A stretch of 64,000 bases of DNA from a virus, in IMG/VR virus record IMGVR_UViG_3300027734_000039, one strand, 5' to 3'. Under the pieces are notes generated by a model. That model was not told the DNA's origin and did no database searches. It was given only the letters and a program-made list of their open reading frames with translations. The position numbers were made by a program, and so were the translations under genes. The first letter of the stretch is position 1; every line of letters begins with the position of its first letter. Below are positions 5,708 through 52,644 of the stretch, in pieces.

Positions 5708-5835
5708 TTTACAGCTTGTGTTTTCTTATTTTTCAAAGACTTCTTAAGAATTTTAAACCAAACTTTCTTTTCTTTATCCTTATTTTTTTCAAGGATAGCT
5801 TTGTAAAGTTTAGAAACTAACTTATTTACTTTCAT
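5704..5835 (-). CDS. 43-aa Lys-rich peptide (not in ORF track)
   Basis: MKVNKLVSKLYKAILEKNKDKEKKVWFKILKKSLKNKKTQAVK; overlaps upstream stop and downstream start (ATGA). Confidence 0.6.
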   Translation of the reverse strand: MKVNKLVSKLYKAILEKNKDKEKKVWFKILKKSLKNKKTQAVK

Positions 5836-6583
5836 CGTTCCACCTTATTAGTTCGAATTTACCATCATAGTGTTCAACAATAGCAGTACAAGATTCTACC
5901 CAGTCACCACAGTTATAGTATTTAATACCGTTGAAATCGCCAATGTTAGCGTGATGGATATGACCACAAACAACACCGCTAACTTCTTGTGTTTTAGCAA
6001 AAGAAGAAAGGGTCTCTTCATAATTGCCAATAAAGTTTACAGCTTCTTTTACTTTGTACTTAGCCCATGCACTCAATGACCAATATGGCAACCCAAACCA
6101 GTTTCTAACTTTAGTAACAAGAGTGTTAAGCGCCATCGCTACATCATACGCCCAAGAACCTAGATGAGCTAACCACTTTGCATTTCTAATTACAGCATCA
6201 AACTGGTCGCCGTGTATGACAAGTATAGGTTTACCATCAACTGTAATATGAACGAAACGTTCTAATACGTGAATGTTACCAAAGAACTGATCACCAAACG
6301 TTCTTAGTATTTCGTCGTGATTGCCTGACACATATATGATATCAGTACCTTTACGACCTTTTCTTAATATCTTTTGTACAACGTCATTGTGACTTTGTGT
6401 CCAATACATATTTTTTGACATAGCCCAGCAGTCAATAATATCGCCTACCAAATAAAACTTTTCACATTCAAACGTTTTCATAAACTCTAATAGAGCATCA
6501 GCCTGTGACGCTTTTGTCCCAAGGTGAACATCTGATATGAATACAGAACGATACTTATTTACTATTGGTTCTGAAGACGCCAT
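5822..6583 (-). CDS. Metallophosphoesterase, PlcP/LpxH2-like phospholipase C
   Basis: SDVHLG, LVGDIID, HNDVVQKILRKGRKG, GNHDE, HGDQFD, GHIH and GDWVESCTA motifs; adjacent to Agt-like GT4. Confidence 0.85.
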   Translation of the reverse strand: MASSEPIVNKYRSVFISDVHLGTKASQADALLEFMKTFECEKFYLVGDIIDCWAMSKNMYWTQSHNDVVQKILRKGRKGTDIIYVSGNHDEILRTFGDQFFGNIHVLERFVHITVDGKPILVIHGDQFDAVIRNAKWLAHLGSWAYDVAMALNTLVTKVRNWFGLPYWSLSAWAKYKVKEAVNFIGNYEETLSSFAKTQEVSGVVCGHIHHANIGDFNGIKYYNCGDWVESCTAIVEHYDGKFELIRWNDESK

Positions 6584-8618
6584 CCCAATTTTCTCCTGGT
6601 GGGTTTATTTTATATTCTTTTACTCTTTCCATCATCATATCATAATATTCTTTCATTTCACCATCAAATGCATTTTGAAGCGTTTTATAATAATCTTTTA
6701 GCTTATCCCACTTTTGACCTCTATAAAACTTTATAAAGTCCGCATGAGTACGAGAATAAGCAATGTTGATGCTATTCCTATCAACAATCGTGTAAATGTT
6801 AACACCTTCAGTTTTTCCTTTCACAGCAAGACAATCAAGCTCCAAGCATAGATATTCATCTTTAACTAACTCGTAAGTACGTTGACCTATAATCAGTTTT
6901 ACATGATACGGTTTTGATTGACCTTCTAGTCTAGAGGCCAAGTTAACAGAATCACCGAGGCAAGTATAATCGAAACGCTGAGAGCTACCCATATTTCCGA
7001 CAACAACAGAACCAGTATTGATACCAAGACCCATACCGAAAGCAGGAATACCTTCGTTGGCGATTTCAGCATTGAAGCGATCCAAGTCGCCAAGCATTTC
7101 AAGAGCTGTTTTAACTGCATGTTTAGCGTGATCCTTATCGTCTAGTGGTGCGTTCCAAAAAGCCATTTGAGCATCACCAATATATTTATCAAGCGTTCCT
7201 TCATTTTCAAGTATTTTCGCAGTCATCGCTGTCATGTAGCGATTCATAATCTCAGTAAGACCTTGAACGTTAGATCCATAATGCTCACTAATAGTAGTGA
7301 AACCCCTAACATCAGTAAACATAATTGAAAGTTCTCTGGTTTCTCCGCCAAGGCGTAATAACTCCGGATTCTTTTGTAGTTTTTCTACAAGAGCTGGTGA
7401 AAGATAAGTTCCAAACTGCTTTTTAATTTGTTGTTTTAATCTGAATTCACGAGCGAAATTATTAAACGTCAATTGAAAAAATATTGCGATGCAACTAAGT
7501 AATATGTAGCTCGGATCCCACAGCTGCATATAATTTAAAAACATATAATACGAACCGCCGACAATGGAAACGACAAATGTTATCAAAACAGGTATGGTCC
7601 AAAAGACCGAAGTACGAGGTATTAGAATTAGCAATGTGCCTAATAGCAATACTAGCAGCGCTGTCTCTAGTAGCTTACTCTCTGGTAAACGGCTTATAGA
7701 AGTTCCGTCAATTAAAGTTTGAAGTGCTTGACCTTGCACTTCATGTGCCCACTTCTCCCCGATAGGTGTTGCAACTATACCACCAACACCTTCGATGGTC
7801 AATCCTAAGATAACAATTTTCCCTTCGACGGTTTCTTTTGTAATTTCAGTTGCTTCAATCTTGCTGAAGTTGTTGTTCCATCCGAGCCAGATGCGACCGT
7901 TTTTATCTGTAGAGATGGCGGGGAACTGTGGGATGCGGACGGCTTCGACACCCGCTTCACCTGTTTTGATTTGGTAAGAGGGATCGCCAGCAGCTGTTCG
8001 TAAGGTTTCCAATACAAAAGAAGGATACAGTGTATCGCCAATCCGAGCCAACATAGGCATACGACGGACAACGCCATCGCGCTCGGGAGCAACTGCCAAA
8101 AGCCCAACACCATCCGCATTTCCTGCCAATGTTGGTAAAGGAGCCACAGCCCCCCTCCAAGTATACAACCATGGATCAGGAGCATTACCGATACTAGCAA
8201 ACCCTCTGCGAGCAGCATCTGCTGGTCTTGATTGAGATGTAGGAGTTTGAGAAATGACAACGCTACCACCTCCTAAACTTTTTGCGAGCTCTTGGTCGCC
8301 ACCAGCTCTATCTTTTTCAGAAAATAAAATAGGAACTGAAATAACTGCTGCACCTGAATCGCGGAGCGTATCAATCGTTTGAGCAATATCCCTTCGGTCA
8401 AATGGCCATTGACCAAATTTTTGAACTGACTTTTCGCCAAACTCAACGAAAACAACTTCATCCGACTGTTTCTTTTCTAGTGTTCCTATCAGATAGTCAA
8501 AGGTTTTCAGCTGTAGTGTTTCGATAGGACTTGGATTGATAACATACAATGTCAACAGGAGAAAGGCGCTGATAGCAGCTGCCCACGTACTTGTAAGATA
8601 TTTGCCCAGATTTTCCAT
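6555..8618 (-). CDS. CHASE2-domain class III adenylate cyclase
   Basis: N-terminal TM, CHASE2 (GQWPFDR, DGVVRR), 3 TMs, catalytic FTDVRGFT, DKYIGDA, YTCLGDSVNLASRLE. Confidence 0.92.
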   Translation of the reverse strand: MENLGKYLTSTWAAAISAFLLLTLYVINPSPIETLQLKTFDYLIGTLEKKQSDEVVFVEFGEKSVQKFGQWPFDRRDIAQTIDTLRDSGAAVISVPILFSEKDRAGGDQELAKSLGGGSVVISQTPTSQSRPADAARRGFASIGNAPDPWLYTWRGAVAPLPTLAGNADGVGLLAVAPERDGVVRRMPMLARIGDTLYPSFVLETLRTAAGDPSYQIKTGEAGVEAVRIPQFPAISTDKNGRIWLGWNNNFSKIEATEITKETVEGKIVILGLTIEGVGGIVATPIGEKWAHEVQGQALQTLIDGTSISRLPESKLLETALLVLLLGTLLILIPRTSVFWTIPVLITFVVSIVGGSYYMFLNYMQLWDPSYILLSCIAIFFQLTFNNFAREFRLKQQIKKQFGTYLSPALVEKLQKNPELLRLGGETRELSIMFTDVRGFTTISEHYGSNVQGLTEIMNRYMTAMTAKILENEGTLDKYIGDAQMAFWNAPLDDKDHAKHAVKTALEMLGDLDRFNAEIANEGIPAFGMGLGINTGSVVVGNMGSSQRFDYTCLGDSVNLASRLEGQSKPYHVKLIIGQRTYELVKDEYLCLELDCLAVKGKTEGVNIYTIVDRNSINIAYSRTHADFIKFYRGQKWDKLKDYYKTLQNAFDGEMKEYYDMMMERVKEYKINPPGENWDGVFRTNSK

Positions 8619-8620
8619 TT

Positions 8621-8884
8621 TCAGTACTGGTTGATGATATATGGACTATTAGGGCAGCTGCTACCACATACAACGCTAAGGCTAAAAGACTGTGCATTAA
8701 TTCCAGACTGAGTGACTGAAACGCTAATCCCGTCGCCTGAAAGTTGCAAATTAGCAGAATGACCAGAAGCAGACTGAGTAATAATAACATTTTGATTTGC
8801 TCCTTGAATGTTCACGATTGCATTATTAATATTCTGCGAATAAGCAGCAGTAGTCATAAAAAGTAAAGCTAAAAGTGTTTTCAT
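8621..8884 (-). CDS. Small secreted curlin-like protein
   Basis: Signal peptide, N-x-A-x-V/I-x-Q repeats, CxxxC, ends IINQY. Confidence 0.65.
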   Translation of the reverse strand: MKTLLALLFMTTAAYSQNINNAIVNIQGANQNVIITQSASGHSANLQLSGDGISVSVTQSGINAQSFSLSVVCGSSCPNSPYIINQY

Positions 8885-9996
8885 CAGTTACCCTGCTTTA
8901 TATTGATAGTTGTTGTTCCTCTACTATTTACAATTTGAGAAATAGTAATGTTTTCTTGGGTAATGTTTACGGTTAAACTGTTATTAGTAGATACCGTTAC
9001 TTCTGCATATGCACCACTTACTTCGCGATATAATGTAACATAGTCATTTTCAACGAAATACTTCAATCCAGTTGCAGCATTATACTTAGGCAATAGAGCA
9101 TTATATTCAGTTAATTCGTTACCTAGTAATTGAGAAGATGCTATATCCAAAAGGTTCATAAGGTAATCTGAATCGAGATAATTTCTATCTAACTTATTAT
9201 ACTCTGATAGGTAATTTTTACTTAACTCGGTATATATTAATAGGTCTTTTCCAAGTAGATCTTCATCAAGAAAATTGTAAGCTTTAGTTACTATATTTTC
9301 TTGAACTGCCACCTGTTTCGGTGGGGTAACAATAATTAGGTTATTGATTTGATCTAAATTGAGATTAAGGATAGCTGACTTCGGTGTAGTCATTCTACTA
9401 CCAACTGCAACTGATTCGAATGGCTTTGTTAACCAAACCGTACCCATATCAGTCGTTACGGATATAGATCCTGTGATACAATCGCGTTCAACATTTCTCC
9501 ACCCAACAGGGCAAGAAGGTAAAAGAATAACAGTACTGCGACCGATCTCGTCAACAGTTCCAGAAAAGTCAGTTCCTCTGACACCGATTGTAGCTGTGGG
9601 CGTCTCAACAACAACCTGTTGCGGATCAGATTTAGCGATTTGACCTGATGCATATTTAATAGTTCCCAAAGCCATCTTGATTCCAAGCTTACCAGTTTTC
9701 TTAGAATCATCGTAAACAAAGTTATCAATTACAAGTTTAGAATGCTCGGTTATTTGAACCTTAGTATCATCCTGAAATGTAATGCCAGCTTTACCATTAG
9801 CAGTTGTGATTGTATCTCTCATCTCAATGCCACTTTGAATGGCGCTTGAAATCACAGCTGTATTACGTTTAATTTCAGTTGGACCTGTTTGCTCTGTTAC
9901 TTTACCAACGTCAGCTTTAGTTGTGGTTGGATCTAATAGTAAGAGTGTTGCCAGAACCAGTGATTGTAGAAATGACCTTTGAATCAACGCCGCCAC
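8884..9996 (-). CDS. FecR-domain protein
   Basis: Signal peptide; DTITT, ITFQDDT...ITEHSKLVID, TPTATIGVRGTDF. Confidence 0.85.
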   Translation of the reverse strand: MAALIQRSFLQSLVLATLLLLDPTTTKADVGKVTEQTGPTEIKRNTAVISSAIQSGIEMRDTITTANGKAGITFQDDTKVQITEHSKLVIDNFVYDDSKKTGKLGIKMALGTIKYASGQIAKSDPQQVVVETPTATIGVRGTDFSGTVDEIGRSTVILLPSCPVGWRNVERDCITGSISVTTDMGTVWLTKPFESVAVGSRMTTPKSAILNLNLDQINNLIIVTPPKQVAVQENIVTKAYNFLDEDLLGKDLLIYTELSKNYLSEYNKLDRNYLDSDYLMNLLDIASSQLLGNELTEYNALLPKYNAATGLKYFVENDYVTLYREVSGAYAEVTVSTNNSLTVNITQENITISQIVNSRGTTTINIKQGN

Positions 9997-10600
9997 CTTG
10001 CTTAATATCTACCGTATTAGTAGCGCCCAGGATATTCACGTCTGCTTCATGTCCATTTATACCTGCTACACCAGTTTGTTTAATTGCTACTTCATTACCG
10101 CCGCCGCCATCGATAAGCACAGTGCTTTTTGCACCAGCAACTGATGATGAATCGTTCTGAATGTTTACTGTGTTATTATCTGTATTGATTGTAACTGTTG
10201 AAAGTGTAAAACCTTCGGCATTTTGAGTAACAGTATTGTTATCGCCTGTAATTGTATTAACTAGAGACGAACCTGAACAAGATCCGCCAGAACCACAGGA
10301 AATACCTACTGCGTTGTTATCGCCAGTTACCAAAGAGTTTATAGTAACGCCATCACCAAAAACAACTACGTTGGCAACGTTAGTGTTACCTATTTGGTCG
10401 ATTGTTACGATATTGTTTTGTCCGTTAAAAGTCGCTTTATTCGTTGCATTACCAATAGAATTAGTGTTACCAGTTTGGGTCATACTGATCGTAGAACCAT
10501 CGCCTATCTGATCAACGTATACACTATTTCCTGCTGCGTTTGCATAATTTACCATAACCAAGAATGACAATAACGCCATCATTCTTGTTAATAGTTGCAT
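9917..10600 (-). CDS. Curlin-repeat (CsgA/CsgB-like) secreted protein
   Basis: Signal peptide followed by repeated N-x-V-x-I-x-Q-x-G-x-x-N units. Confidence 0.8.
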   Translation of the reverse strand: MQLLTRMMALLSFLVMVNYANAAGNSVYVDQIGDGSTISMTQTGNTNSIGNATNKATFNGQNNIVTIDQIGNTNVANVVVFGDGVTINSLVTGDNNAVGISCGSGGSCSGSSLVNTITGDNNTVTQNAEGFTLSTVTINTDNNTVNIQNDSSSVAGAKSTVLIDGGGGNEVAIKQTGVAGINGHEADVNILGATNTVDIKQGGGVDSKVISTITGSGNTLTIRSNHN

Positions 10601-11425
10601 TTATTTTCCCTTCTTAAAGCTCCATAAGTTTTTCTTAGCGCCTTCTTTAATCATCTCTGTAACTGCCGCCTCAATCGCGATTCTAACGGCATACGTTGTC
10701 GGTTCGTTGACAGAAGAACCAGCTTCGAACTCTACTGATTTAGTTCCAGCATCAACAAACTTAAATACGTTAGCATTAACACCTGTACTGAATACGGTTT
10801 TAGTAACGCCAGTAGATAAAAGTATCTCACCTGTATTTATAGAAATTAACCTTAACATTATAGTAACTTCGTCTTTTCTATACTCCTGAGTAGCTCCTAC
10901 GCCAAGGAATCTAGCACCGATACCGCCAGTACCGATGTTAGAGTCATACCCGACGATACCACCATCAATCATAATACCAGCAACGATGAGAGGCGTCAAA
11001 GGCTTTGCCTGATCCTTCTCATAAAGCTCTCTCTGTGAACGAATAAGCTGTCTTTCTTTTACAAGGTTTTCAAGAGCAACACGTTCAACGGGCATAAACC
11101 ATTGACCCTTGCCAGCATCCTGTAAAGCTTTAATTAAAAGAACTTCGCCGCCCTGCGTTACTGCAGAACTGAACGAAGCATAGTTTTGCGATGGTTTTCT
11201 TTGGCCAGTTAAGTCAGCAAACTTATAAACAGCAATAGGAACCTTTGGCCCATCTACAGGAGCAAGGTTCGCTAATTCATTAAATCTCTTAGAAGTTTTA
11301 ATTACTTCTGGGGAATCAACTTGCGGCTCTACATGCCTTGCGCTTGTTATTTCTTTACCTGTGCAACTTGCAACAAGTAAGCCAGCAAATATAGCAATCC
11401 ATAATTTTTTTATCGTTTTTACCAT
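10601..11425 (-). CDS. csgG: Curli secretion pore lipoprotein CsgG/HfaB family
   Basis: Lipobox LLVASC; IAVYKFADLTGQRKP, SSAVTQG, VERVALENLVKERQLIRS, GGIVGYDSN. Confidence 0.92.
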   Translation of the reverse strand: MVKTIKKLWIAIFAGLLVASCTGKEITSARHVEPQVDSPEVIKTSKRFNELANLAPVDGPKVPIAVYKFADLTGQRKPSQNYASFSSAVTQGGEVLLIKALQDAGKGQWFMPVERVALENLVKERQLIRSQRELYEKDQAKPLTPLIVAGIMIDGGIVGYDSNIGTGGIGARFLGVGATQEYRKDEVTIMLRLISINTGEILLSTGVTKTVFSTGVNANVFKFVDAGTKSVEFEAGSSVNEPTTYAVRIAIEAAVTEMIKEGAKKNLWSFKKGK

Positions 11426-11856
11426 GCTAAACTCCCATACGGAACTACCACTTCAGTAACGCTACCAGCAGCATCTGTTATTCTTAATGTTATATTAGAA
11501 CCATCAGATGACCAAGCAACGTTATTAGATGCAATATCAAAAGACCCAGAAGTTTTGCCGTCGTCGCTAAAAAGCTGTTCGGCTATCTTCTGGGATAAGG
11601 TCGCATAGACGCGACTTTCTAAATTGTTTAGAAACTTGGCTAGGTTTGTATTTTTAGCATCCGAAGCTGCTTTAGCTGCCTCGGCTTTTTTATCATCTAA
11701 TAACTTTTGTTTTCTTGTTTGTTCTAAATTTTCTATCGTAAGAACATGAGAAGAAAACCCTACGCCGTTAAAAGCAGGACTTCTAAACTGAAATTGAATT
11801 TCATTAGCATATGAAACAGAAGAAAATAAACAAAATAATGCGACTAACTTTTTCAT
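11419..11856 (-). CDS. csgF: Curli assembly protein CsgF family
   Basis: Signal peptide then EIQFQFRSPAFNG; FLNNLESRVYATLS; adjacent to csgG. Confidence 0.88.
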   Translation of the reverse strand: MKKLVALFCLFSSVSYANEIQFQFRSPAFNGVGFSSHVLTIENLEQTRKQKLLDDKKAEAAKAASDAKNTNLAKFLNNLESRVYATLSQKIAEQLFSDDGKTSGSFDIASNNVAWSSDGSNITLRITDAAGSVTEVVVPYGSLAW

Positions 11857-11878
11857 TACTTATTTTTCCCTATCTAAA

Positions 11879-11952
11879 TGGCACCAGTGGAAGGAGTCGA
11901 ACCCTCGCCTAGATTTTTGGAGAATCCCGTGCTACCGTAACACTTCACTGAT
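11879..11952 (-). tRNA. tRNA-Trp(CCA)
   Basis: Cloverleaf, loop CTCCAAA, encoded CCA. Confidence 0.85.
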
Positions 11953-11968
11953 ATATAACTATTTAGGG

Positions 11969-12058
11969 TGGTGGAGAGTGTGAGATTCGAACTCACGGAA
12001 CCTGTTAGGGTTCGAGCATTTAGCAAACGCTTGCCTTAAGCCTCTCGGCCAACTCTCC
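11969..12058 (-). tRNA. tRNA-Ser(GCT)
   Basis: Loop TTGCTAA, long variable arm, CCA. Confidence 0.9.
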
Positions 12059-12062
12059 GTAA

Positions 12063-12147
12063 TGGTGGAAGAGGATGGATTCGAACCAACTCACCGTACA
12101 GAATCGATTTACAGTCGACCGCGACTCTCCAACTTCGCCGCTCTTCC
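12063..12147 (-). tRNA. tRNA-Tyr(GTA)
   Basis: Loop CTGTAAA, CCA. Confidence 0.9.
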
Positions 12148-12153
12148 AATTCT

Positions 12154-12227
12154 TGGTACCATCTACTGGTTACGATCCAGTGCTAAGAGTGCCACAAACT
12201 CTTGTGCTACCATTACACTAAGATGGC
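12154..12227 (-). tRNA. tRNA-His(GTG), no G-1, A73
   Basis: Loop TTGTGGC; G1.U72 pair, A73, T at -1. Confidence 0.88.
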
Positions 12228-18801: not shown

Positions 18802-18846
18802 AAAAGTGGGAGGAACCATTATAGCTCCTCCCGAGTCAAAAGTCAA
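18802..18846 (-). promoter_or_regulatory. Sigma70-type promoter overlapping a terminator-like hairpin
   Basis: TTGACT-17-TATAAT; GGGAGGAGC(TATAATG)GTTCCTCCC-ACTTTT. Confidence 0.7.
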
Positions 18847-18847
18847 C

Positions 18848-19501
18848 TTAGAAAGTTGAGCTGGATTCAACAGCAATCCAGTATTCAGCCTCACTTCCCT
18901 TGAAGTGAGAGATACCACGCGAACAAATGCTTACATCGTAATCGCCTGGAATGATCTTAATATTTTCAGACTTAAAGATTGCCTTGAAGGTCTTATCAGT
19001 TTCGCCGATAGCGATAGAATAGATATCGCCAGAAGGATTCTTTGTATCAGCAGCCTGAAGATAAACCTTGCTACCGTCACCAGAAACAACGATCTCAGGA
19101 AGCTGAAGAACGCCAGAAGCCTTTTCGACATCCTTAAGATTTTCGTTGGTGAGACGGAAAGAAACGTCAACCGAAGGAAGTGTGATTTCCTTTTCGGGAA
19201 CCTTAGTAATAGTAGACTCATCAGCATAGGTGTAATGAGTGCTCTTATTATTGTCACCGATATCAACAAACTTTTCGCTGAACTTCAACTCAGGCTCATT
19301 GAAAAGGCTAAGAGTTGAAATGAAACGATCAAGGTTGTAGATAGCGAAACGCTGACCAAACTGAGTTGGGACGTTTGCCTTTGCCATGATTGTCTTTGAA
19401 GGAGAAATGGTCTTCAAAGTATTACCTTCCTGGATAACGATGGAAGGATTAATCTTAGCGAAGTTCTTAAGAACACTAATTGTATTCGCATCAATTTTCA
19501 T
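18848..19501 (-). CDS. gp45: Sliding clamp gp45
   Basis: LKNFAKINPS, FAIYNLDRF, IIPGDYDV, YWIAVE. Confidence 0.95.
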   Translation of the reverse strand: MKIDANTISVLKNFAKINPSIVIQEGNTLKTISPSKTIMAKANVPTQFGQRFAIYNLDRFISTLSLFNEPELKFSEKFVDIGDNNKSTHYTYADESTITKVPEKEITLPSVDVSFRLTNENLKDVEKASGVLQLPEIVVSGDGSKVYLQAADTKNPSGDIYSIAIGETDKTFKAIFKSENIKIIPGDYDVSICSRGISHFKGSEAEYWIAVESSSTF

Positions 19502-19751: not shown

Positions 19752-20603
19752 TCACTTCTTTTTCTTAAGAGCACCAGGATCGGCAGTTGCTGCTGCTCCG
19801 ATAGCGGCCAAGTCAGCAAGCGAGCCACCAAAGATATAGCTACCGACATGCTGAAGCTTCATCCATGGGCAAAACCAAGTTTTGATTTGAGCAGCCTGTG
19901 CCTTCTGACAGAACCAATAATCTTCCGAAAGATAACGCTTTGACTCTGGATCAACTTCAGCCTGGAAGAACATCATAATTTCACGTGTACCATCGAAATG
20001 TTCTGTACGAACGTGATCAGGCTTGTACATATACTGATCCTTGTAGTGTTCGTAGAACTTTTGCATTGCCTTCTTTGTAACCATCATGAAGCCAGTTCCA
20101 ATTTCAAGAACTTCACAAGGCTCGCTGATAGCGATGCTCTGCTGGCCACCCTTTGGATTGAAAACGTAATCGCCAACAAACTTTTCAAGGACGTTAGGAT
20201 TTTCATCAGCAAGACCCTTATCAACGGCAAGCTTAATCTTTTCCCAAGAGATACACTTCTTAGGATAAGGACCGCCAATGATCTCGTACTTTTCTTCTTC
20301 CTGTGCCTGAAGCGCCATCATTGCGATAACGTCCTGAGGATTAAATCCAATATCAGAGTCAATGAAAATCATATGACTTGCATCTGAACGCATAAACTCG
20401 TCGCAGCAATAGTTACGAGCACGAGTAATCAACGATTCGTTGAAAAGAAAATACATTTGAAGAGGAATGCCATACTGAGTGCAAAGAGCAGACAAATCTG
20501 CAACAGACTTAGCAAACATACCTGCGCACTGACCGCCATACATTGGGGTAGCGATAAAAAGCTTACGCTGACGTAGTTCTTCGATTGGGATATTAATTTC
20601 CAT
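19752..20603 (-). CDS. GT-A fold glycosyltransferase-like protein
   Basis: IATPMYGG, ESLITRARN, FIDSDI (DxD), GTGFM, SEDYWFC. Confidence 0.75.
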   Translation of the reverse strand: MEINIPIEELRQRKLFIATPMYGGQCAGMFAKSVADLSALCTQYGIPLQMYFLFNESLITRARNYCCDEFMRSDASHMIFIDSDIGFNPQDVIAMMALQAQEEEKYEIIGGPYPKKCISWEKIKLAVDKGLADENPNVLEKFVGDYVFNPKGGQQSIAISEPCEVLEIGTGFMMVTKKAMQKFYEHYKDQYMYKPDHVRTEHFDGTREIMMFFQAEVDPESKRYLSEDYWFCQKAQAAQIKTWFCPWMKLQHVGSYIFGGSLADLAAIGAAATADPGALKKKK

Positions 20604-20968
20604 TATTTACCATCCTTATAGTGATCGTTATACAGACACATTATTGTGTAATGCAAGACCTTCATCAAGTCATCTTTGTTATTGCCATTCTTTTTACCAT
20701 AACGCCATAGATACTTTATAGCGGTGTTACGGAAAGTAGGAGTGGCATCATCGAGAGCAATCCAAGCATCAAAACATTGAACGTTATTTTCTGTTTGGTA
20801 ATGCTGCCCGTATGTCTTATCTATATAGGCATGAAAGTCAGCGATAATTCGACCTTCGGCATATTTATACTTAATTTCTTTTTCCTTATCAACTTTAGGA
20901 AGCCCCATCAACCAACTCCTTAATCTTATCAAATACTTTCTGCTGTTCGCAGAGGGCATTGTTGTCAT
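20603..20968 (-). CDS. DUF3310/T7 gp1.7-like nucleotide-associated protein
   Basis: TYGQHY...NTAIKYLWRYGKKNG...DLMKVLHY; start may be the later Met (MGLPK). Confidence 0.7.
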   Translation of the reverse strand: MTTMPSANSRKYLIRLRSWLMGLPKVDKEKEIKYKYAEGRIIADFHAYIDKTYGQHYQTENNVQCFDAWIALDDATPTFRNTAIKYLWRYGKKNGNNKDDLMKVLHYTIMCLYNDHYKDGK

Positions 20969-21437
20969 ATTTTTCTATGTTAAACATTAAAGAAAAATTA
21001 GTTAGAATGTTAGCGATCTTAGTTTCACGACCCTGTAACCAAGTTTCGTTTTGTTCGCTACCACGTTCTTTATAGCGTTCTTTTCTCACCTCTTGTTTTG
21101 TTCCTAGATATATGATCTGGGTGTCGAACTTTTCAACACAGTTTTCTAGGAAAGAAGAGGTAAACAAACGATCACCCTCAAATAATAGTATACTATCATT
21201 TGGCAAAGAGTCAAGGAATTTTATTGCCTCTGGCTGAACCGCCATAGACATTCTATCAGTTCCTGAAAAGACCTCGCCTTCTTCATACTTACCAAGAACA
21301 TAAACATTGTTCTTTTGCATATAAGGAACGAGCTTAACTTCGTTATACTTCGGTTCAAGTTCGTAAAAAGAGATAATACGTTTCATAAGTGTGGTTTTAC
21401 CGCTTCCAGGTTCACCACCAATCGCAATAACTTTCAT
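20895..21437 (-). CDS. P-loop kinase (hydroxymethyl-base kinase-like)
   Basis: GGEPGSGKTT, FSGTDRMSMAVQP, FEGDRL. Confidence 0.8.
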   Translation of the reverse strand: MKVIAIGGEPGSGKTTLMKRIISFYELEPKYNEVKLVPYMQKNNVYVLGKYEEGEVFSGTDRMSMAVQPEAIKFLDSLPNDSILLFEGDRLFTSSFLENCVEKFDTQIIYLGTKQEVRKERYKERGSEQNETWLQGRETKIANILTNFSLMFNIEKYDNNALCEQQKVFDKIKELVDGAS

Positions 21438-21439
21438 AA

Positions 21440-22627
21440 TTACTCCATAAAGCTTTCAATGCCTTTCGGCTTATTAAAGTCGTTAGTAAAACAATCCCAC
21501 TCTTTATCCATCATTATAACTTGACCTGTATGAAGATAGTGGTTTTGCTTTTCTTTCGTAAGTCCTGGATCTCCTGGCGTATCTTCTTGTCGTAGATGAA
21601 CGGGTAAACAGTCTTTTCGCATTTGCCAGAATAGATCAAAGTTCGAACCCCATTCCGACTCTGCATATCTAATACGATCATGAAACATATCCATATAAAC
21701 GTTTGGGTAACGGCGGTTGGGTCTGTGCCACGACTTGTAGCAACAGAATGTTGATTCTAGTGTAAAGAAACTTACATCTTCATGCTTAATGCGAGCTTTA
21801 GCTTCTTCAAAAAGAATATCTGCTTCTCGTTCAAGCCATTGAATTGTTTCTGGCTTATACTTTAGTTCTTGCTTCCACCAGTCTAAGTCGTCTCTTCCTA
21901 GGACTTTACAAAGACCATTTCTATGACTACGAGAGCCATCAATATCCCCAAGAAAGAGACTATTGCAATCGAGATCGAGTCCTTGGATACGAAGATATTC
22001 CAAATATGAAAAAGTAGAAAGGCGACCGAAGCTAAGAAAATTAGTTCTGACATAATCCCAAGTCCTTTCGAAATTTTTGTATTTATCTCCAGTGTTTTGA
22101 AGATGTTCAAACAAAGCAGCTTGGGAGCCGAACTTATCAACTTGATTCTTATAAGCTTGAACGCATGCAGGGAAACCTGTTTTGCCAATCTTAAAGTATT
22201 TACGATCTGTATCCCAACCAGAACCAGCTTTAAACTTCTGATGATTATCATTCCACCAAGAGTCTAGTTTATCAATATCAAGATCTTTGATAGTCGGAAA
22301 CTTTTGTAGGATCATATAAGTCGTAACGATGTTTTGCGAACAACCATTAACGAAAGCGGTCCAAAGTTTCTGCTCTTTATCCATATTAAAATGTTTAGCG
22401 AGCCAAGGCATAGCAAAATACACAGCACCTGGATGCGACTTATTTTTCAAATGAAATTCATAAAAACGAAGGAAAACTTCGCGACGATAAATCGGTCGGC
22501 GAAAATCCATTCCTTTTTCTAAATTAGATATTTCTGGTTGATTGTTTAGTTCGGACCAACGTCCAATAATTTGATCAGAAGAAGTTGTCAAGAGTACTCT
22601 TTTCCTCGCCCATGAAATAAAACCCAT
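21440..22627 (-). CDS. aGPT-Pplase / amino-acid:DNA transferase-like (HhH glycosylase fold)
   Basis: WDTDRKY, SFGRLSTFSYLEYL, SHRNGL, TLESTFCCYK, RRYPNVYMD. Confidence 0.72.
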   Translation of the reverse strand: MGFISWARKRVLLTTSSDQIIGRWSELNNQPEISNLEKGMDFRRPIYRREVFLRFYEFHLKNKSHPGAVYFAMPWLAKHFNMDKEQKLWTAFVNGCSQNIVTTYMILQKFPTIKDLDIDKLDSWWNDNHQKFKAGSGWDTDRKYFKIGKTGFPACVQAYKNQVDKFGSQAALFEHLQNTGDKYKNFERTWDYVRTNFLSFGRLSTFSYLEYLRIQGLDLDCNSLFLGDIDGSRSHRNGLCKVLGRDDLDWWKQELKYKPETIQWLEREADILFEEAKARIKHEDVSFFTLESTFCCYKSWHRPNRRYPNVYMDMFHDRIRYAESEWGSNFDLFWQMRKDCLPVHLRQEDTPGDPGLTKEKQNHYLHTGQVIMMDKEWDCFTNDFNKPKGIESFME

Positions 22628-23354
22628 CTAGATTATCAGCAACAGGAAACTCTTTTGTTTCAGTTTCGTGCTTACCAGGAATAGCAGCAAAGTAAACAGC
22701 ATTCCTAGCTCTAAATGCAGCTCTAATTATACTATAACCAAAACGATTATACAACCAGTTTGAATAAGCACTTACATAATCATACTTATCATTAACTTGA
22801 GCCGAGAGAATTTCACCATACTTTTTGCCATGAATAGTCATAGGATAAGTTACTGATGTATCTGTCCAAACAACAAGCTTAGGATTAGATTCGAACATTT
22901 TATCGAAACCATTTTTCCACTTAGTTGTTATTTGAAGAATACTCGAGTTAGGCAAATCAAGAAACTTTAAATCGCTTTCGTCGTTTTTCTCAAGAGCCTT
23001 TTGAGCATCTTCAAGATCAACTGTAATAGGGCAATCCCATCTTGTGCTAAGAAGATGTTCTACGCACCCAGCATCAAGTTCGCCAACATTATGCTTAGAA
23101 ATTTTAAACAGTTTTTGAATTAAAAGAGTTTGAACTCCGATACCAGCCATATATTCTCTAACAGAATAATTTTCATCTGGCTGTATAACATTTTGCAAAA
23201 GCCACTTTGTAGCCCAGCACTTGGCGGCTACTAGATCCGTGTGCTGGGCTGCATAGTGAATATACGAACGATTGTGGAGGCTTACGCTATCTTCTGACTT
23301 AACATCAATGTTAAACGGAAGGTCCCACTCATTACAAATTTTAGCAATTTTCAC
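22575..23354 (-). CDS. Class I SAM-dependent transferase-like protein
   Basis: EYMAGIG (motif I), ELD, DA, DLKFLDLP. Confidence 0.55.
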   Translation of the reverse strand: MKIAKICNEWDLPFNIDVKSEDSVSLHNRSYIHYAAQHTDLVAAKCWATKWLLQNVIQPDENYSVREYMAGIGVQTLLIQKLFKISKHNVGELDAGCVEHLLSTRWDCPITVDLEDAQKALEKNDESDLKFLDLPNSSILQITTKWKNGFDKMFESNPKLVVWTDTSVTYPMTIHGKKYGEILSAQVNDKYDYVSAYSNWLYNRFGYSIIRAAFRARNAVYFAAIPGKHETETKEFPVADNLDGFYFMGEEKSTLDNFF

Positions 23355-24673
23355 GCAAAGAAATCCTCAAGAGTAGATGTTTCATCCTTACCATAAGGAT
23401 CCTTCATATCATGCTTATGAAGGTAATCATACCACTCTTGATCTTCCCACATTCCTGGGGAAACGCCATTCCAAAGAGGACGCCAAAACTTATGTTCCTT
23501 ATTCATGCGACGTTCGTCAACGTACTGCTTACGAAGCATTTCATAATCATATGACTTAAGTTCGAGCATCTTTTCGCGGAAATAACAAACCAACGAAATA
23601 CGTTCTGCCTTATCGTGGTTTAAAACGATAGGAGTGTTACCGTGAATAATTTCATGATTGTTAACAAGAAGCAGATCGCCTGGACGAACGTTCACAGCAA
23701 CGCGAACTTCTGGAAATACAAGATAGCCACCAGTATACTCGCCATCCCCAAGAACAAGAAGATTAGAAAGACCTTCATTCAAGTCACCAGCATCTCGGTG
23801 ACAAGCAGTACGGAATGACTTATTAACTGTGATTGTAGTAAACACAGTTTCAGGAACAAGGAAACGAGGATCAATTTTATCGGCAGCTGCCTTCTGATTG
23901 CTCCAACGCCAGTTGAGAAGCTCCTTGAAACCTTTATTCAAAGTTTGCATGAAAGGATAGCAACCCTTGAACTTTTCAAAGTTCTTTTCAGTATAAGAAG
24001 TTGCGCGACCATAAGGGATACGAGGATAACGATCGTACCAACCAGCAACGCCAGACATAACAGACTTCGCATAGTTAGTTGTTGATGCCCACTTTTCAGC
24101 AACCATCTTCGCTTCATCACGAACTGTTTCTTGTGGCTTGTTTGCGAGACCATCAACCCACTTATCGAACCAACCATGATACTCAGGATAAACCTTTTCA
24201 ACTTCTGAACGAAGCCAAACTGTTCCGCGAGTTTCGTCGCTATCCTTAGGATTGCCGTTCTTATACTTCTCACGAATGCTTTCGATTGAAACGTCATCAA
24301 TCAAACGTGCGCCATCATCCATAAGGAAGTCAAGCACTTCATGCTGATAAGCAGTTACCCAATCACGACCACCACGACCTTCAACAGCTAGCATATCCCC
24401 ACGAGGACCAGCGGCGATACCACGGTTTTGAGATTCAGTTGCTGCTTCGCGCAGAGCTTCATAAGCTGAATTTTGTTCTTCTTTACTAAAGTAATTTTTA
24501 CGGAACTTAAAAGCAATACGAAGTTCTTCGTTATCAGAATCGTCTAAGCTTGATGCAGCTAGAAAACAATCAGTATCTTCTTCAACCAGAATATCATAAT
24601 GCGACTCGTCAGGAAACTGACCGAGCATATCTTCTCTGTTAAACTTTTCTTTAGCTACAATTACCTTAACCAT
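23351..24673 (-). CDS. TET/JBP-family 2OG-Fe(II) dioxygenase
   Basis: FTTITVNK...TACHRDAGD (HxD), HGNTPI (H), ERISLVCYFRE (R). Confidence 0.82.
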   Translation of the reverse strand: MVKVIVAKEKFNREDMLGQFPDESHYDILVEEDTDCFLAASSLDDSDNEELRIAFKFRKNYFSKEEQNSAYEALREAATESQNRGIAAGPRGDMLAVEGRGGRDWVTAYQHEVLDFLMDDGARLIDDVSIESIREKYKNGNPKDSDETRGTVWLRSEVEKVYPEYHGWFDKWVDGLANKPQETVRDEAKMVAEKWASTTNYAKSVMSGVAGWYDRYPRIPYGRATSYTEKNFEKFKGCYPFMQTLNKGFKELLNWRWSNQKAAADKIDPRFLVPETVFTTITVNKSFRTACHRDAGDLNEGLSNLLVLGDGEYTGGYLVFPEVRVAVNVRPGDLLLVNNHEIIHGNTPIVLNHDKAERISLVCYFREKMLELKSYDYEMLRKQYVDERRMNKEHKFWRPLWNGVSPGMWEDQEWYDYLHKHDMKDPYGKDETSTLEDFFA

Positions 24674-24749
24674 TTCACTTCTCCTGTACTAGAATCGTCT
24701 TATTATATATACGACAATTATAGCTCGATTCATACATAATGTAAATATA

Positions 24750-25125
24750 TTATTCTTGTGACTTTTTTAATACGCCTTCGATATCAGGCGGTGTCCAGCT
24801 AGCTGGTTTTTGAATTTTACCATCTTCACGAAGAAGAACTTTACCGTCAACTAGCTTGGCCATGTTGCTGCGATGAACTTCTTCGAATACTTTATCAAGA
24901 GGAATACCATATGACACAGCAGTACCACATGCAATGTAGATAATATCAGCCAAGGCATCTGCGATTTCAATAAGATCATTTTCGTTTTCCGCAATAGTAT
25001 ATTCATACATTTCTTCAGAAAGAAGTCTCATCCTTAGTGTTCGTTCGGCAGTATCAGGAATCTCTGGCTTTTCGCCGATGCGCTGACCGAAAGCCTTATG
25101 AAATTCTTTTACGTCTGTAAACATT
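24750..25125 (-). CDS. MazG-like (PRA-PH/DR2231-type) NTP pyrophosphohydrolase
   Basis: VKEFH, LLSEEMYE, DALADIIY, EVHRSNMAK, REDGKIQKP; start approximate (listed ORF extends to 25166). Confidence 0.85.
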
Positions 25126-25126
25126 G

Positions 25127-25681
25127 TCATTGTGTAATCCATTCTGGTGGTTGGCGTTTTTTCCAATTATGCATCCTAGCTTTACCAATCTTATAATAAT
25201 TTCGGTAATTAGTCAAGGGGTCGTCTGAAATAATATATTCCTCTGCCATGCAAGAAGGCATGGGAGTCCAATCATACTCTTGAAGATTCTTAGGAGGAGA
25301 CTGCAGCATATAAGAAAGCTCGCCATTACACTTATGAACTTTTTCGTATCTGTGGATATACTCGTTCATAAGTGCAAAAAAATGTTCTACGAGCCAATTA
25401 TAGTTTTCAACAGAAGTTCGACACCAAACAGCCGAAGGATGATTGACATGAGTTGCCGAATACATTACTGAATCGCGAGCATCGGGAAGGATATATGCTT
25501 TTGTTTTACGAGTTTTGCCCGTTTCAAAATTTACTTTAACAGCATCAACAAGCTCGCCATCTAGAACACGGTGAGCGGTCGAGAGCAACTGTGCGCTCTC
25601 GAGAATCATTTTTACAACATGTTTATCGACCATCCATTCAGCAGCTTGAACAGGGTCATGACTGATGTAGAAGATATTCAT
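25127..25681 (-). CDS. Pyrimidine-dimer glycosylase (DenV-like) family protein
   Basis: MNIFY, DKHVVKMILESAQLLSTAH, HVNHPSAVW, YRNYY. Confidence 0.75.
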   Translation of the reverse strand: MNIFYISHDPVQAAEWMVDKHVVKMILESAQLLSTAHRVLDGELVDAVKVNFETGKTRKTKAYILPDARDSVMYSATHVNHPSAVWCRTSVENYNWLVEHFFALMNEYIHRYEKVHKCNGELSYMLQSPPKNLQEYDWTPMPSCMAEEYIISDDPLTNYRNYYKIGKARMHNWKKRQPPEWITQ

Positions 25682-26364: not shown

Positions 26365-26507
26365 TGTCTTATAACTCCCGCTACGATAAAGAAGTTAGTT
26401 ATGATATAGCATAGGACAATCGCTGTTCTAATCAAAGCAACTCTGTCTGCTTCTTCATTAGTTTTACCATTTTTTTCACCGAGTGCTTTTGCCCAAAGAC
26501 GCCACAT
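26358..26507 (-). CDS. 49-aa membrane protein (not in ORF track)
   Basis: MWRLWAKALGEK...EADRVALIRT...NFFIVAGVIRHW; TAATG-coupled to g46; resembles a small protein seen in T4-like aquatic phages. Confidence 0.75.
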   Translation of the reverse strand: MWRLWAKALGEKNGKTNEEADRVALIRTAIVLCYIITNFFIVAGVIRHW

Positions 26508-28213
26508 TAAACAACTCTACTGAAATTTTTATGTTTCTCGAACTTGATTACTTTGTTAAACTTATCATAAAGCTGATCTGTCTTATGACTTATTATAAAC
26601 GTATTTGTATCTAAAGTCAAATTATTTAAAATCTTAAGGAACTCTTCTGTTCCATTAGCATCTAGAGAAGAGTCAAAGACTTCGTCCATAATGAGTAGAT
26701 TAGTACTAATTGAATTACGGAGTTTAGCAATAGCACGCCAAGTAAAAAGGATCGCAAGGTTAATACGCATCTTTTCCCCTTCCGAGAAGGAAGCGTAAGA
26801 AAACTCATCGCGGAATCTAGACTTAATTGTTTCGTTGAATTCCTCATCAAGCTCGAACTGGACAAAGAAATCCATAGCACTAAGATACTTATTAATGAGC
26901 TTATTGATAACAGGAACATACTGTTTAATAATCCTTGATTTGATACCGCCGTCTTTCAAAAGAGAAGAAGCTGCAGTAAGAACAACTCTATCTTCGTTCA
27001 ATTCATTATATTTTGTTTTGAGCTCATCTAGCTCTTTTTCAATATCACCAATCTTAGTATCATCTTCAACAAAAGACTTTTTGCTTATGTTTGTTATTTC
27101 ACTTTCAAGCGAATCGCGATATTCAATCAAAGAAGTAATCTTAGTTTTTACTCTATGAATTTCCATACGCTGATCGTTAATAGAAGTTTGAATATCTAAA
27201 ATTTCACTCAAACGAGAGTTAGCTTCTTCGTACTGCTTAATGAGTTCAGAAAGACCGTTTTCAATTTCATCAATTTCACCTTTTTTATTTGAAAGAGTTG
27301 TTTCTTTGAAATCTTCATTAATTTCTTGTTTACATGTTGGGCAGTTATCGTGCTTTTTGAAAAACTCAACATCATTTTCAATCAAAGCTTTCTTAGCTTC
27401 GATTTGATGCCTCAACTTTTGAAGAGTATTAACACGTTTCGAAGTAGCCTCTTCATCTTCAATAGATTCAACTAAACTCTTACGCTTATTTTCAAACTTC
27501 CAAAACTCTTCATTCAAATCGCTGATTTGTTTATTAGTGTCTTCAATACGGGACTTCTTATCAATAACGAGCTGGTCGTTATTGTTTTGCATCTCTTGAA
27601 GATGCTCTTTAATTAACTTGATTTTTTCTTCGGCAATTTTTCGGTTGTTTGTTGACTGAACGATATGCTCGTTGTTAATCATAATCTTTTCTTTTAACAA
27701 CGTATTCATAGTCGTAAAAATTTGAAGGTCCAAAAGGTCTTCAATAATTTCTCTTCTATTTGAAGTACTAAGTTGCATAAAAGGCATGAACGTGGCAGAG
27801 CCAAGAACAACTACTTGAGAAAACGATTTATGATTTACTTTAATAATTTGCTTTTCAAGAACTTCTTGATAGTCTTTCATTTCAGCAGATTGATTTAACA
27901 AGTCACCGTTTTGATAAACTTCAAAAACAGTTGGCTTCACACCACGAACGATTTTATAATTATTAGGTCCGATAGAAAATTCAACTTCTACAACAAGGTT
28001 CTTTTGAGTTATTGAGTTAAGGAGTTGTGGCTTATTGATCTTTCTAAACGCCTTACCGAAAAGAGCGAATGAAAGAGCATCAAGCATAGTTGATTTACCC
28101 GCACCGTTACCGCCAACGATGAGAGTGGTGTTATGCTCGTTTAGAACTATTTCTGTGAAAATATTACCTGTGGAAAGAAAGTTTTTCCAGCGTAGCTTTT
28201 TAAATAAAATCAA
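26507..28213 (-). CDS. gp46: Recombination ATPase gp46 (Rad50/SbcC-like)
   Basis: KNFLSTGN, GAGKST, CPTC hook, FSEGEK, DEVFDSSLD. Confidence 0.97.
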   Translation of the reverse strand: MILFKKLRWKNFLSTGNIFTEIVLNEHNTTLIVGGNGAGKSTMLDALSFALFGKAFRKINKPQLLNSITQKNLVVEVEFSIGPNNYKIVRGVKPTVFEVYQNGDLLNQSAEMKDYQEVLEKQIIKVNHKSFSQVVVLGSATFMPFMQLSTSNRREIIEDLLDLQIFTTMNTLLKEKIMINNEHIVQSTNNRKIAEEKIKLIKEHLQEMQNNNDQLVIDKKSRIEDTNKQISDLNEEFWKFENKRKSLVESIEDEEATSKRVNTLQKLRHQIEAKKALIENDVEFFKKHDNCPTCKQEINEDFKETTLSNKKGEIDEIENGLSELIKQYEEANSRLSEILDIQTSINDQRMEIHRVKTKITSLIEYRDSLESEITNISKKSFVEDDTKIGDIEKELDELKTKYNELNEDRVVLTAASSLLKDGGIKSRIIKQYVPVINKLINKYLSAMDFFVQFELDEEFNETIKSRFRDEFSYASFSEGEKMRINLAILFTWRAIAKLRNSISTNLLIMDEVFDSSLDANGTEEFLKILNNLTLDTNTFIISHKTDQLYDKFNKVIKFEKHKNFSRVV

Positions 28214-29724: not shown

Positions 29725-30261
29725 TGTTACTCTCCGAGAATTTTTCAACTCCACTTAGTTTACTACTTTTTTTAGGTTTAGTCAACTTATTTTCATAGCT
29801 GCGAACAACTTCCGAAGAATACTCGTTAGCCTTAAGATGCATATTTTCCGAATCGCTCCAAAGTTCATTCATAAGAAAGCTGTTTTCGAAATTCTTATGC
29901 TTGATATATGTTTGTTTCTTTTCTTTTTGAATACGTCTAATAAAAGCGTTCCAAGCGATCTGAGTAAAGTAAGCAAAGGATTATTGGTTTTATCAGGATC
30001 AAAGTTATCTACGGCTGCAATACAGTCGATAATACCGTCAGATATCATATCCTGCTTATATGTATAGCCAGAGAAATTAGGCTTCTTTGCCAAATTATTA
30101 CAAATCAAAAGAATAGATTGCCCGATGTAATTCGAAACTTGTGGCTTCGGTCTATCGTTTTTCAACGCTTCATTTAATTTCGTTTTATACTCGATCATTG
30201 AAGTATAAAGCGTTTTATTGTTGATATAATTTTTTGGCTTGCGTGGCTTTGATTCTGACAT
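29714..30261 (-). CDS. gp55: Late sigma factor gp55, interrupted by a 1-nt frameshift at about 29975-29977
   Basis: NYINNK, KPNFSGYTYKQDMISDG, NFDP; adding one T restores NPFAYFTQIAWNAFIRRIQKEKKQ and runs to TGA at 29714. Confidence 0.9.
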
Positions 30262-51729: not shown

Positions 51730-51972
51730 TTAGGTGTTTAAAACTTCTGGCCACACAGCTTTAAGTTCTTCTACTGTTTGAGCAGCTTCAATAGCTGGAT
51801 CAGATGTTACATCCCTAAGAGCTTGTTTTTGAGCCACAATTGTAGCAGTATTTGCATTTTGTTCTAGTGCTCGTTGAAAAGCTACATCTAATGCAGCAAG
51901 TAATGGTGCACGAGCAGCACGCATTTTTTCACGATGAATATTACGAGCTTTTTCCATATTAACAGTAATCAT
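51730..51972 (-). CDS. Tail fibre assembly chaperone-like
   Basis: RAPLLAALD...KQALRDVT...LKAVWP. Confidence 0.7.
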   Translation of the reverse strand: MITVNMEKARNIHREKMRAARAPLLAALDVAFQRALEQNANTATIVAQKQALRDVTSDPAIEAAQTVEELKAVWPEVLNT

Positions 51973-52217
51973 TGACTATTTCCCTGTTTTGCAAACCAAG
52001 CTTCGTGACCGACACCATATCCATCAGGCGTGGTAAAGTCGGCTTCCCATGCATTAAAAAAACTATCGTCAGGAAGTTCTACGGTGTCTTCTACAAACAA
52101 ATAAGGTATACCAGCTGGAACATCTTTGCGAGCAACTTCTTCAATTGCAAGTTCGCCAGTTGGTATAATCATTGCAATACCACCAGTATCATTTGGAAAA
52201 ATAATATATTTTCTCAT
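51969..52217 (-). CDS. Tail-associated hypothetical protein
   Basis: Probable start MRKYII after GAGG; KDVPAG, FFNAWE. Confidence 0.65.
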   Translation of the reverse strand: MRKYIIFPNDTGGIAMIIPTGELAIEEVARKDVPAGIPYLFVEDTVELPDDSFFNAWEADFTTPDGYGVGHEAWFAKQGNSQ

Positions 52218-52224
52218 ATTTGCC

Positions 52225-52644
52225 TCATCTAATAACAGCAGCGTTAAAGGTGTAAATATCGTTTGTAGCGTAAACAACCAAACGAACTTGTGTAGTTGAC
52301 ATTAAAGTCGGAGCTGCTGTGATAGCTGATGCTAAAATACGAGCATTAACAGTACCACCAGCAACATCTCCAATTATAGCGCTTACGCAATAACTTGTAT
52401 CGGGCATAGCAGTAGTAAAATTAAGCGTGTAATCACCTATACCGTTTCTAGTAACAGATGAAATATTTCCACTAGCGTTAACAGCTACTGTAGCAGTACC
52501 TTTATAACTTACCCATGCACGGCAACCATAAGCAACAGCAGCTGAACCAAAACCAGAGTTAAAAGAACAGTTAGCACCAACACTAAGATTGGTGTCGACA
52601 GTAGCCGTTCCATATACTCTTGTTCCACTTAAAAGTTTTGCCAT
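52225..52644 (-). CDS. Short tail fibre-like protein
   Basis: CRAWV..G, NISSVTRNGIGDYTLNFTTAM. Confidence 0.7.
   Translation of the reverse strand: MAKLLSGTRVYGTATVDTNLSVGANCSFNSGFGSAAVAYGCRAWVSYKGTATVAVNASGNISSVTRNGIGDYTLNFTTAMPDTSYCVSAIIGDVAGGTVNARILASAITAAPTLMSTTQVRLVVYATNDIYTFNAAVIR

Follow-up and report, generated by a model that had tools for sequence, protein, structure and literature searches.

A cassette probably dedicated to the post-replicative hypermodification of thymidine lies in the replication block, between gp46 and gp45, of a T4-like marine myovirus represented by 64,000 nucleotides of DNA (IMG/VR record IMGVR_UViG_3300027734_000039; this whole stretch is called the window below). 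Its core is four minus-strand genes, which encode a TET/JBP dioxygenase, a protein with an S-adenosylmethionine (SAM) methyltransferase fold, an amino acid:DNA transferase (AADT) and a P-loop kinase predicted to act on 5-hydroxymethyluracil (5hmU) in DNA:

23351..24673, minus strand: TET/JBP dioxygenase of the long form (5mYOX), 440 amino acids (aa), recognized by Pfam Tet_JBP.
22575..23354, minus strand: class I SAM-methyltransferase-fold protein, 259 aa, recognized from its predicted structure and motifs.
21440..22591, minus strand: AADT (aGPT-Pplase clade 2, formerly aGPT-Pplase2), recognized from homologs and catalytic-type residues; 383 aa counted from the second ATG, with the longest reading frame reaching 22627.
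20895..21437, minus strand: P-loop kinase (Ploopntkinase3), the predicted 5-hmU DNA kinase, recognized by Pfam and its Walker A motif.

A first-pass annotation of these letters had proposed a DNA hypermodification pathway here. The overlapping or abutting minus-strand genes that it described are all present, and profile searches did not move them to unrelated families. The dioxygenase, whose HxD..H..R signature had been read as intact, matches Pfam Tet_JBP (PF12851) with an E-value of 9.6e-25 and a score of 87.2 bits (cut-off 34.9). The residues H292-x-D294 and H344 of the Fe(II) triad and the 2-oxoglutarate-binding R358 are invariant across 15 homologs, and a profile built from these homologs matches TET2 in the PDB (E 4e-5). 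Structural comparison is consistent with this assignment: an AF2 model (pLDDT 78) predicts a TET-type double-stranded beta-helix fold, aligning to TET2 with a Z-score of 19.6 (rmsd 3.9, 254 residues aligned) and to NgTET1 with a Z-score of 19.1 (229/264 aligned), in each case from residue 1 to about residue 390.

Which base this enzyme would oxidize had been left by the first-pass annotation as either thymine or 5-methylcytosine (5mC), followed by phosphorylation and substitution. That core logic stands, with thymine favored. Pfam scans of the window's open reading frames of at least roughly 100 aa found no C5-methyltransferase, no ParB and no member of the ThyA family, to which the dUMP and dCMP hydroxymethylases raised by the first-pass annotation belong. 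The same three are absent from G001, a 173-kb relative rated 100% complete that carries the same cassette and has ThyX; ThyX does not lie inside the window and is confirmed in relatives only. Replication with ordinary thymine, followed by oxidation in the polymer, fits a genome such as G001 that has ThyX and neither a hydroxymethylase nor a C5-methyltransferase. Clade A and clade B phage TETs oxidize 5mC, and Burke 2021 (PMC8256090) proposes kinase action on 5-hydroxymethylcytosine (5hmC) for some contigs; one contig related to the window, G002, carries a C5-methyltransferase about 60 kb from its cassette. That the TET here acts on 5mC, with the kinase and AADT then elaborating 5hmC instead of 5hmU, is nonetheless very improbable given the missing C5-methyltransferase in the window's reading frames and in G001. 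In addition, the AADTs studied so far use 5-phosphomethyl-dU (PMC8989533, PMC11472151), and a C5-methyltransferase occurs in only 6% of 5mYOX neighborhoods, where the clade linked to AADTs and kinases is the thymine-dioxygenase clade (PMC13229309). Judged from gene content and family, thymine is the likely substrate, and the window TET is likely a thymine-DNA dioxygenase.

The transferase and kinase calls of the first-pass annotation are likewise borne out. The AADT is identical to a database protein (P0001) that has a precomputed match to Pfam PF18724.7, a match also carried by more than 100 of its homologs, and tblastn connects it to ViI-type 'aGPT-Pplase clade 2' genes at E-values of about 1e-15 to 1e-17. 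Its E279 is invariant and its C283 is present in 9/10 sequences, with the same E-x3-C spacing as the catalytic E243/C247 of PUGT, the gp46 product of PaMx11 (PMC11472151). An essential cysteine and glutamate of AADTs are described in PMC8989533. Sequence and profile searches of the PDB returned nothing useful for the AADT. The kinase matches Ploopntkinase3 (PF18751) with 47.4 bits (cut-off 27) and has the Walker A motif GEPGSGKT.

Recurrence of the four genes together in about 40 independent viral contigs puts their order far beyond chance. With a profile of the 259-aa protein, 43 IMG/VR loci were recovered, at which neighbors were counted only where the contig has room for them. By this count the methyltransferase-fold gene is flanked by a TET gene in 40/40 loci, an AADT gene in 41/41 and a kinase gene in 38/38, and the linkage holds in T4-like and other backbones alike.

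The window itself is clearly T4-like, encoding Gp23, Gp20, the sheath and tube proteins, UvsY and UvsW, together with gp44/62, gp45, gp46/47 and RegA, and it has extras of the marine pelagiphage type such as a curli CsgG/CsgF module. Its GC content is about 38%, and nearly all genes lie on the minus strand. From gp46 the block runs through genes for a peptide deformylase, a phrog_624/Pyr_excise-like protein, MazG/PRA-PH and TET/JBP, continues with those for the 259-aa, 383-aa, kinase, DUF3310-like and 283-aa proteins and a 79-aa open reading frame, and ends at gp45. The features around the core are as follows:

26507-28213: gp46, the upstream bound of the gene block.
24750..25166, minus strand: MazG/PRA-PH-type nucleoside triphosphate pyrophosphohydrolase (E 7.6e-23), upstream of the cassette promoter.
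24717..24745, minus strand: predicted strong sigma70-like promoter, TTTACA-17-TATAAT (11/12 match), within the 76 bp that separate MazG from TET.
20603..20968, minus strand: DUF3310-like protein, a borderline Pfam match; phrog_480.
19752..20603, minus strand: GT-A-like protein (phrog_1574), 283 aa, with sub-threshold profile matches and a DxD motif.
18848..19501, minus strand: gp45 sliding clamp, the proposed docking platform.
18808-18832: terminator-like hairpin just past gp45.

The predicted promoter is followed by an AGGAG and then by the TET ATG. Neighboring genes of the cassette overlap or abut, the GTG start of the methyltransferase-fold gene overlapping the TET stop, and six genes are coupled behind the single predicted promoter; between it and the end of gp45 we saw no terminator-like site. 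The core is the four genes, and the DUF3310-like and GT-A-like genes are two passengers on the same transcript. The MazG-like gene that had been noted upstream is present, but it is not counted as a cassette member, as it lies upstream of the predicted promoter and is positioned elsewhere in the relatives DLP6 and Cr30. Next to it, on the minus strand at 25127-25681, is the gene for the 184-aa phrog_624 protein, a borderline match (23.4 bits against a cut-off of 23) to Pyr_excise, the family of T4 endonuclease V-type pyrimidine-dimer glycosylases; this gene is kept between the deformylase and MazG genes across T4-like relatives.

The two passengers occur at about half of the loci with room for them, and only together with T4-like replication genes (gp45). 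Membership of the DUF3310-like gene in the cassette is doubtful; its product scores 23.0 bits against DUF3310, just below the cut-off of 24, and matches phrog_480 at E 2.5e-21. The GT-A-like protein has an invariant D82-x-D84, and its homologs match Anp1 (8/9, best E 8.7e-5), Glyco_transf_21 (5/9) and Glycos_transf_2 (3/9), all below the cut-offs. Its Atlas neighbors likewise point, below threshold, to GT-A, and searches of the PDB by sequence and by profile turned up nothing useful. The first-pass annotation had placed glycosylation by this protein in the pathway, which would make six genes one route ending in a glycosylated base. Translational coupling of all six behind one promoter would suit such a route, as would the finding that glycosyltransferases are the commonest neighbors of phage 5mYOX genes, at 31% (PMC13229309), and the presence of both a long TET and the GT-A-like gene in DLP6 and Cr30. 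The distribution of the gene argues otherwise. It accompanies the cassette in just 13/24 contigs with room, all with gp45-type, T4-like backbones, and it sits between gp46 and gp45 in phiM12, a phage without a TET. Furthermore, none of 15 GT-A-like proteins bears the clamp-type tail described below, and substitution by an AADT would leave no free 5-hydroxymethyl group to glycosylate. We consider a six-gene glycosylation route improbable. With its restriction to T4-like backbones and its occurrence in phiM12, the GT-A-like gene is probably a backbone gene adjoining gp45, near which the cassette was inserted.

The methyltransferase-fold protein is an invariant, uncatalogued fourth member of the cassette. 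Pfam and PDB sequence searches gave no match for it and a profile search of the PDB nothing useful, and the SAM-fold call of the first-pass annotation is upheld by its AF2 model (pLDDT 90.9). The model predicts a class I methyltransferase fold, at a Foldseek E-value of 1e-8, with VIA Z-scores of 15.1 to Trm1 (217 residues aligned) and about 14 to RsmD, Trm5, TYW2, TrmM and RlmO. Motif I reads E67-x3-G71-x-G73, with E67, G71 and G73 invariant; E92 ends strand 2, at a position that is mostly acidic in homologs; and D116-A follows strand 3. After strand 4 comes a motif IV-like D133-[LF]-P135-[NS]-S137-S138, without an aromatic residue. In KsgA/Erm-type enzymes motif IV is N-L-P-Y, and the segment here resembles both this and (D/N/S)-P-P-aromatic, minus the aromatic. 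In a 50%-identity library, 324 representatives of the family are found at E<=1e-3, and its weak recurrent matches are to RrnaAD, MTS and TRM5-TYW2, those to RrnaAD arising in 5/25 members with a best E of 1.7e-4. A 348-aa metagenomic protein, P0304, appeared to fuse the methyltransferase fold to the kinase. Neither the C-terminus of the methyltransferase nor the P-loop of the kinase is present in it, and we rejected it as a 'Rosetta stone' fusion; a deletion derivative or a misassembly is the probable explanation.

What this protein does can be approached from its nearest structures and weak profile matches, which are amine N-methyltransferases, from its motif IV without an aromatic residue and from a C-terminal tail like that of a DNA enzyme. 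These features suggest N-methylation of an aliphatic amine on a DNA adduct, by analogy with MnmC in mnm5U synthesis. Alternatively, the protein could stand outside the thymine pathway, either as a methyltransferase that acts independently on DNA or RNA bases or as a non-catalytic activator or scaffold of TET that merely travels along. The structures nearest to it are indeed tRNA and rRNA amino-methyltransferases (Trm1, RsmD, Trm5, TrmM, KsgA-like), its gene follows TET immediately, the start codon overlapping the TET stop, and TETs without ParB need some explanation. However, SAM-binding motifs I to IV are kept, there is neither the aromatic residue of base-flipping amino-methyltransferases nor a target-recognition domain, and the gene always adjoins AADT (41/41). 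It is also found with ParB and a short TET, in L043 and L044, and is thus no simple replacement for ParB. A role outside the pathway is, in our view, unlikely, and action on the amine of the DNA adduct is the function that we carry forward.

Three of the core proteins end in a way that recalls ligands of the sliding clamp. The C-termini are STLEDFFA in TET, STLDNFF in the methyltransferase-fold protein and GIESFME in the AADT. Of 83 open reading frames of the window, just two, those of TET and the methyltransferase-fold protein, finish with L-[DE]-x-[FLMY]-[FLMY], a pattern with a background of 0.002 per 9-residue window, and in two cassette-bearing relatives the B-family polymerase gp43 ends in ATLEDFFG and ASLENFF. 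The strict pattern is present in 24/40 TETs, 20/41 methyltransferase-fold proteins and 10/39 AADTs, with many near-misses, and in 2/37 kinases and 0/18 DUF3310 proteins; the non-T4-like L043 and L044 lack the tail. In the models of TET and the methyltransferase-fold protein, the tails fall in low-confidence, probably flexible ends. The acidic-hydrophobic C-termini of T4 gp43, gp55 and gp33 are interchangeable gp45 ligands (PMC2988020), and T4 alpha-glucosyltransferase binds gp45 (PMC13216743). The parallel lies in a DNA-modifying enzyme on the clamp and in an acidic-hydrophobic tail at the extreme C-terminus; in contrast to the T4 tails, those here are on a dioxygenase, a methyltransferase-fold protein and an AADT, and their binding is predicted from sequence. 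By this likeness TET, the methyltransferase-fold protein and, more loosely, the AADT probably work docked on gp45 clamps left on new DNA.

The window TET is also distinguished by its length. It is about 135 aa longer than a short, ParB-linked TET of 305 aa from L043, with which it shares the N-terminal ~95 residues. Its C-terminus is longer, and an insertion of ~95 residues, at about residues 96-190, faces a gap in L043 and holds the invariant R103, W105, V106 and W153. L043 and L044 are the only related loci with ParB: both are non-T4-like and carry ParB_N with the short TET on the opposite strand (10369-11902, minus strand, in L043), together with the same methyltransferase-fold, AADT and kinase genes as the window. 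ParB_N itself was found neither in the window's reading frames nor in G001. We rejected the idea that the N-terminus of the long TET is a fused ParB-like domain: the enzyme's alignment to TET2 and NgTET1 starts at residue 1, and its additional residues form an internal insertion. O'Toole 2026 reports that 5mYOXs hold a variable insertion in their N-terminal part and that it is essential (PMC13229309), and a swap of this insertion can turn a ParB-dependent enzyme ParB-independent (PMC13229309). Given that result, the enlarged insertion may stand in for the ParB activator needed by short TETs. The long TET without ParB and the short TET with it form a natural pair that allows a direct test of ParB's role.

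The pathway that we propose would begin with ordinary dTMP, made by ThyX as in the relatives, and replication with thymine. The long TET/JBP enzyme would then hydroxylate thymine in the DNA polymer to 5hmU, a step assigned on the basis of its family and of the missing C5-methyltransferase and hydroxymethylase genes. By analogy with 5-hydroxymethyluracil DNA kinases (5-HMUDKs), the kinase would phosphorylate the new hydroxyl to give 5-phosphomethyl-dU (5-PmdU). In the AADT, Cys283 would attack C6 with Glu279 as the acid, the phosphate would be expelled and an amino acid would join the exocyclic methylene; both residues are seen here, and the chemistry is modeled on M6 gp51, ViI gp247 and PaMx11 gp46. 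Finally, the methyltransferase-fold protein would most likely N-methylate the appended amine on DNA, which is the weakest step. We advance only tentatively the full combination in which this protein is a DNA N-methyltransferase yielding N-methyl-aminoacyl-thymidine, it and TET and AADT dock on gp45, and the TET insertion replaces ParB.

Several observations weigh against the thymidine hypermodification cassette and its elaborations. The case for it is built on sequence and predicted structures. According to Burke 2021 (PMC8256090) and to PMC13229309, some ParB-less TETs of clade C1 are inactive in E. coli. A scan with PF18724.6, named 'ADDT', gives no match to the window AADT, a blank that we attribute to this version being older than PF18724.7. 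PF18724.6 does detect the Cr30 homolog, and pipelines that annotate with older Pfam releases will overlook these cassettes. Beyond the P-loop, the kinase has no significant similarity to ViI-type kinase 2, and its 106 tblastn records at E<=1e-3 include none from M6 (gp54), ViI (gp67) or phiW-14 (gp37); other cultured relatives of the kinase are found in Cr30 and Melnitz. The (D/N/S)PP(Y/F/W) motif of DNA and RNA amino-methyltransferases was not found in the 259-aa protein, which is outside every curated family, so its SAM binding is predicted from its motifs and fold. As for the tails, about half of the homologs fail the strict pattern, and the comparison was made with the gp43 of relatives, the window having none.

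The route in itself is already published or predicted, and the novelty implied by the first-pass annotation was overstated. Lee 2021 (PMC8989533) reports metavirome contigs in which TET_JBP replaces the dUMP hydroxymethylase beside a 5-HMUDK and aGPT-Pplase2, and proposes 5hmU formation in situ; likewise, contigs 72, 80 and 86 in Burke 2021 (PMC8256090) have a TET with a P-loop kinase and an aGPT-Pplase. Thymine-dioxygenase activity of phage enzymes has been shown in vivo and in vitro by O'Toole 2026 (PMC13229309). The metavirome TET_JBP clusters (sequences 22-25 in Fig. 2 of Lee 2021, and those of Burke 2021) follow the same logic, from T through 5hmU and 5-PmdU to a substituted T. The accessible sections of these two papers (PMC8989533, PMC8256090) make no mention of a methyltransferase-fold partner, a T4-like backbone or clamp-type tails, and none of these clusters has a determined product. 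Three features set the window apart, namely the methyltransferase-fold partner, the ParB-less long TET with its insertion and the gp43-like tails. A megablast search of the cluster against phage genomes returned no match.

The closest described arrangements differ from the window in instructive ways. O'Toole 2026 found a ParB-dependent subclass 'consistently linked' with GATases, P-loop kinases and AADTs (PMC13229309). Genes 1-4 of mycobacteriophage Hangman encode ParB, TET (oxidoreductase), AADT and kinase in a row, with 39.5% identity to the window in the AADT, 31% in the kinase and 29% in the TET core, and Rhodococcus phage Tonitrus is annotated like them (PMC11955845). Unlike the ParB-dependent modules (PMC13229309), the window has no ParB, a longer TET with an insertion and an extra methyltransferase-fold gene. 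Phages M6, ViI, PaMx11, SP10 and phiW-14 share the kinase and AADT chemistry on 5hmU-DNA and the AADT Glu/Cys (PMC5889632, PMC8989533, PMC11472151). By comparison, the window cassette lacks a dUMP hydroxymethylase and the pyridoxal-phosphate decarboxylase, radical SAM, flavin adenine dinucleotide (FAD) oxidase and acetyltransferase tailoring genes, and its kinase belongs to the Ploopntkinase3 clade, that of ViI-type phages being kinase 2. Lee 2021 (PMC8989533) draws the analogy to the MnmEG/MnmC (mnm5U) tRNA pathway, in which glycine is placed at C5 via an exocyclic methylene and SAM-dependent N-methylation occurs. The substrate there is RNA, the enzymes are unrelated, and the window cassette has no FAD oxidase step.

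Long TETs are accompanied by other tailoring genes in further phages. Caulobacter phage Cr30 (KF301602.1; L002) has at 7001-12164 a long TET, annotated merely as 'SNF2 DNA repair protein', with a dATP/dGTP diphosphohydrolase and a PF18724 AADT (E 1.3e-52); a weak TAGT-like glycosyltransferase and an inositol-1-phosphate synthase are nearby, and its kinase homolog lies at 51803-52321 of the record, about 7 kb from TET. In phage C48C1 (L003, 8353-10385) a UDP-galactopyranose mutase comes after the long TET, and in Stenotrophomonas phage DLP6 (L001, 5274-6965) a 563-aa sugar nucleotidyltransferase stands ahead of it; this gene content suggests sugar-based tailoring of 5hmU in these two phages. 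In the cultured marine Methylophilales phage Melnitz (MZ577097.1), a region annotated as hypothetical proteins (5763-8060) contains a match to the TET domain and, no more than about 2 kb from it, a homologous kinase with 35% identity. The varied tailoring genes beside long TETs support the published view of a modular gene pool built on 5hmU.

Two further features of the window lie apart from the cassette. On the minus strand at 29738-30261, a homolog of the late sigma factor gp55 is split over two frames near 29978-29982, its conserved NPFAYFTQIAWNAFIRRI segment going on in another frame; the split may reflect either a genuine frameshift or an error in sequencing or assembly. Between 31765 and 52277, two 2OG-FeII_Oxy_5 genes and one JmjC_2 gene occur amid structural genes.

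Post-replicative thymine hypermodification initiated by a phage thymine dioxygenase was demonstrated only very recently, and for no complete pathway of TET, kinase and AADT is the product known. Hypermodified DNA withstands restriction enzymes, and its amplification and sequencing can be impeded (PMC12686479). The cassette described here is common among marine and freshwater T4-like phage contigs, with some 40 loci. If our assignment of the methyltransferase-fold protein is right, N-methyl-aminoacyl-thymidine would be a base not yet seen in any genome, and the clamp-type tails, if they act as proposed, would explain how these enzymes find newly made phage DNA.

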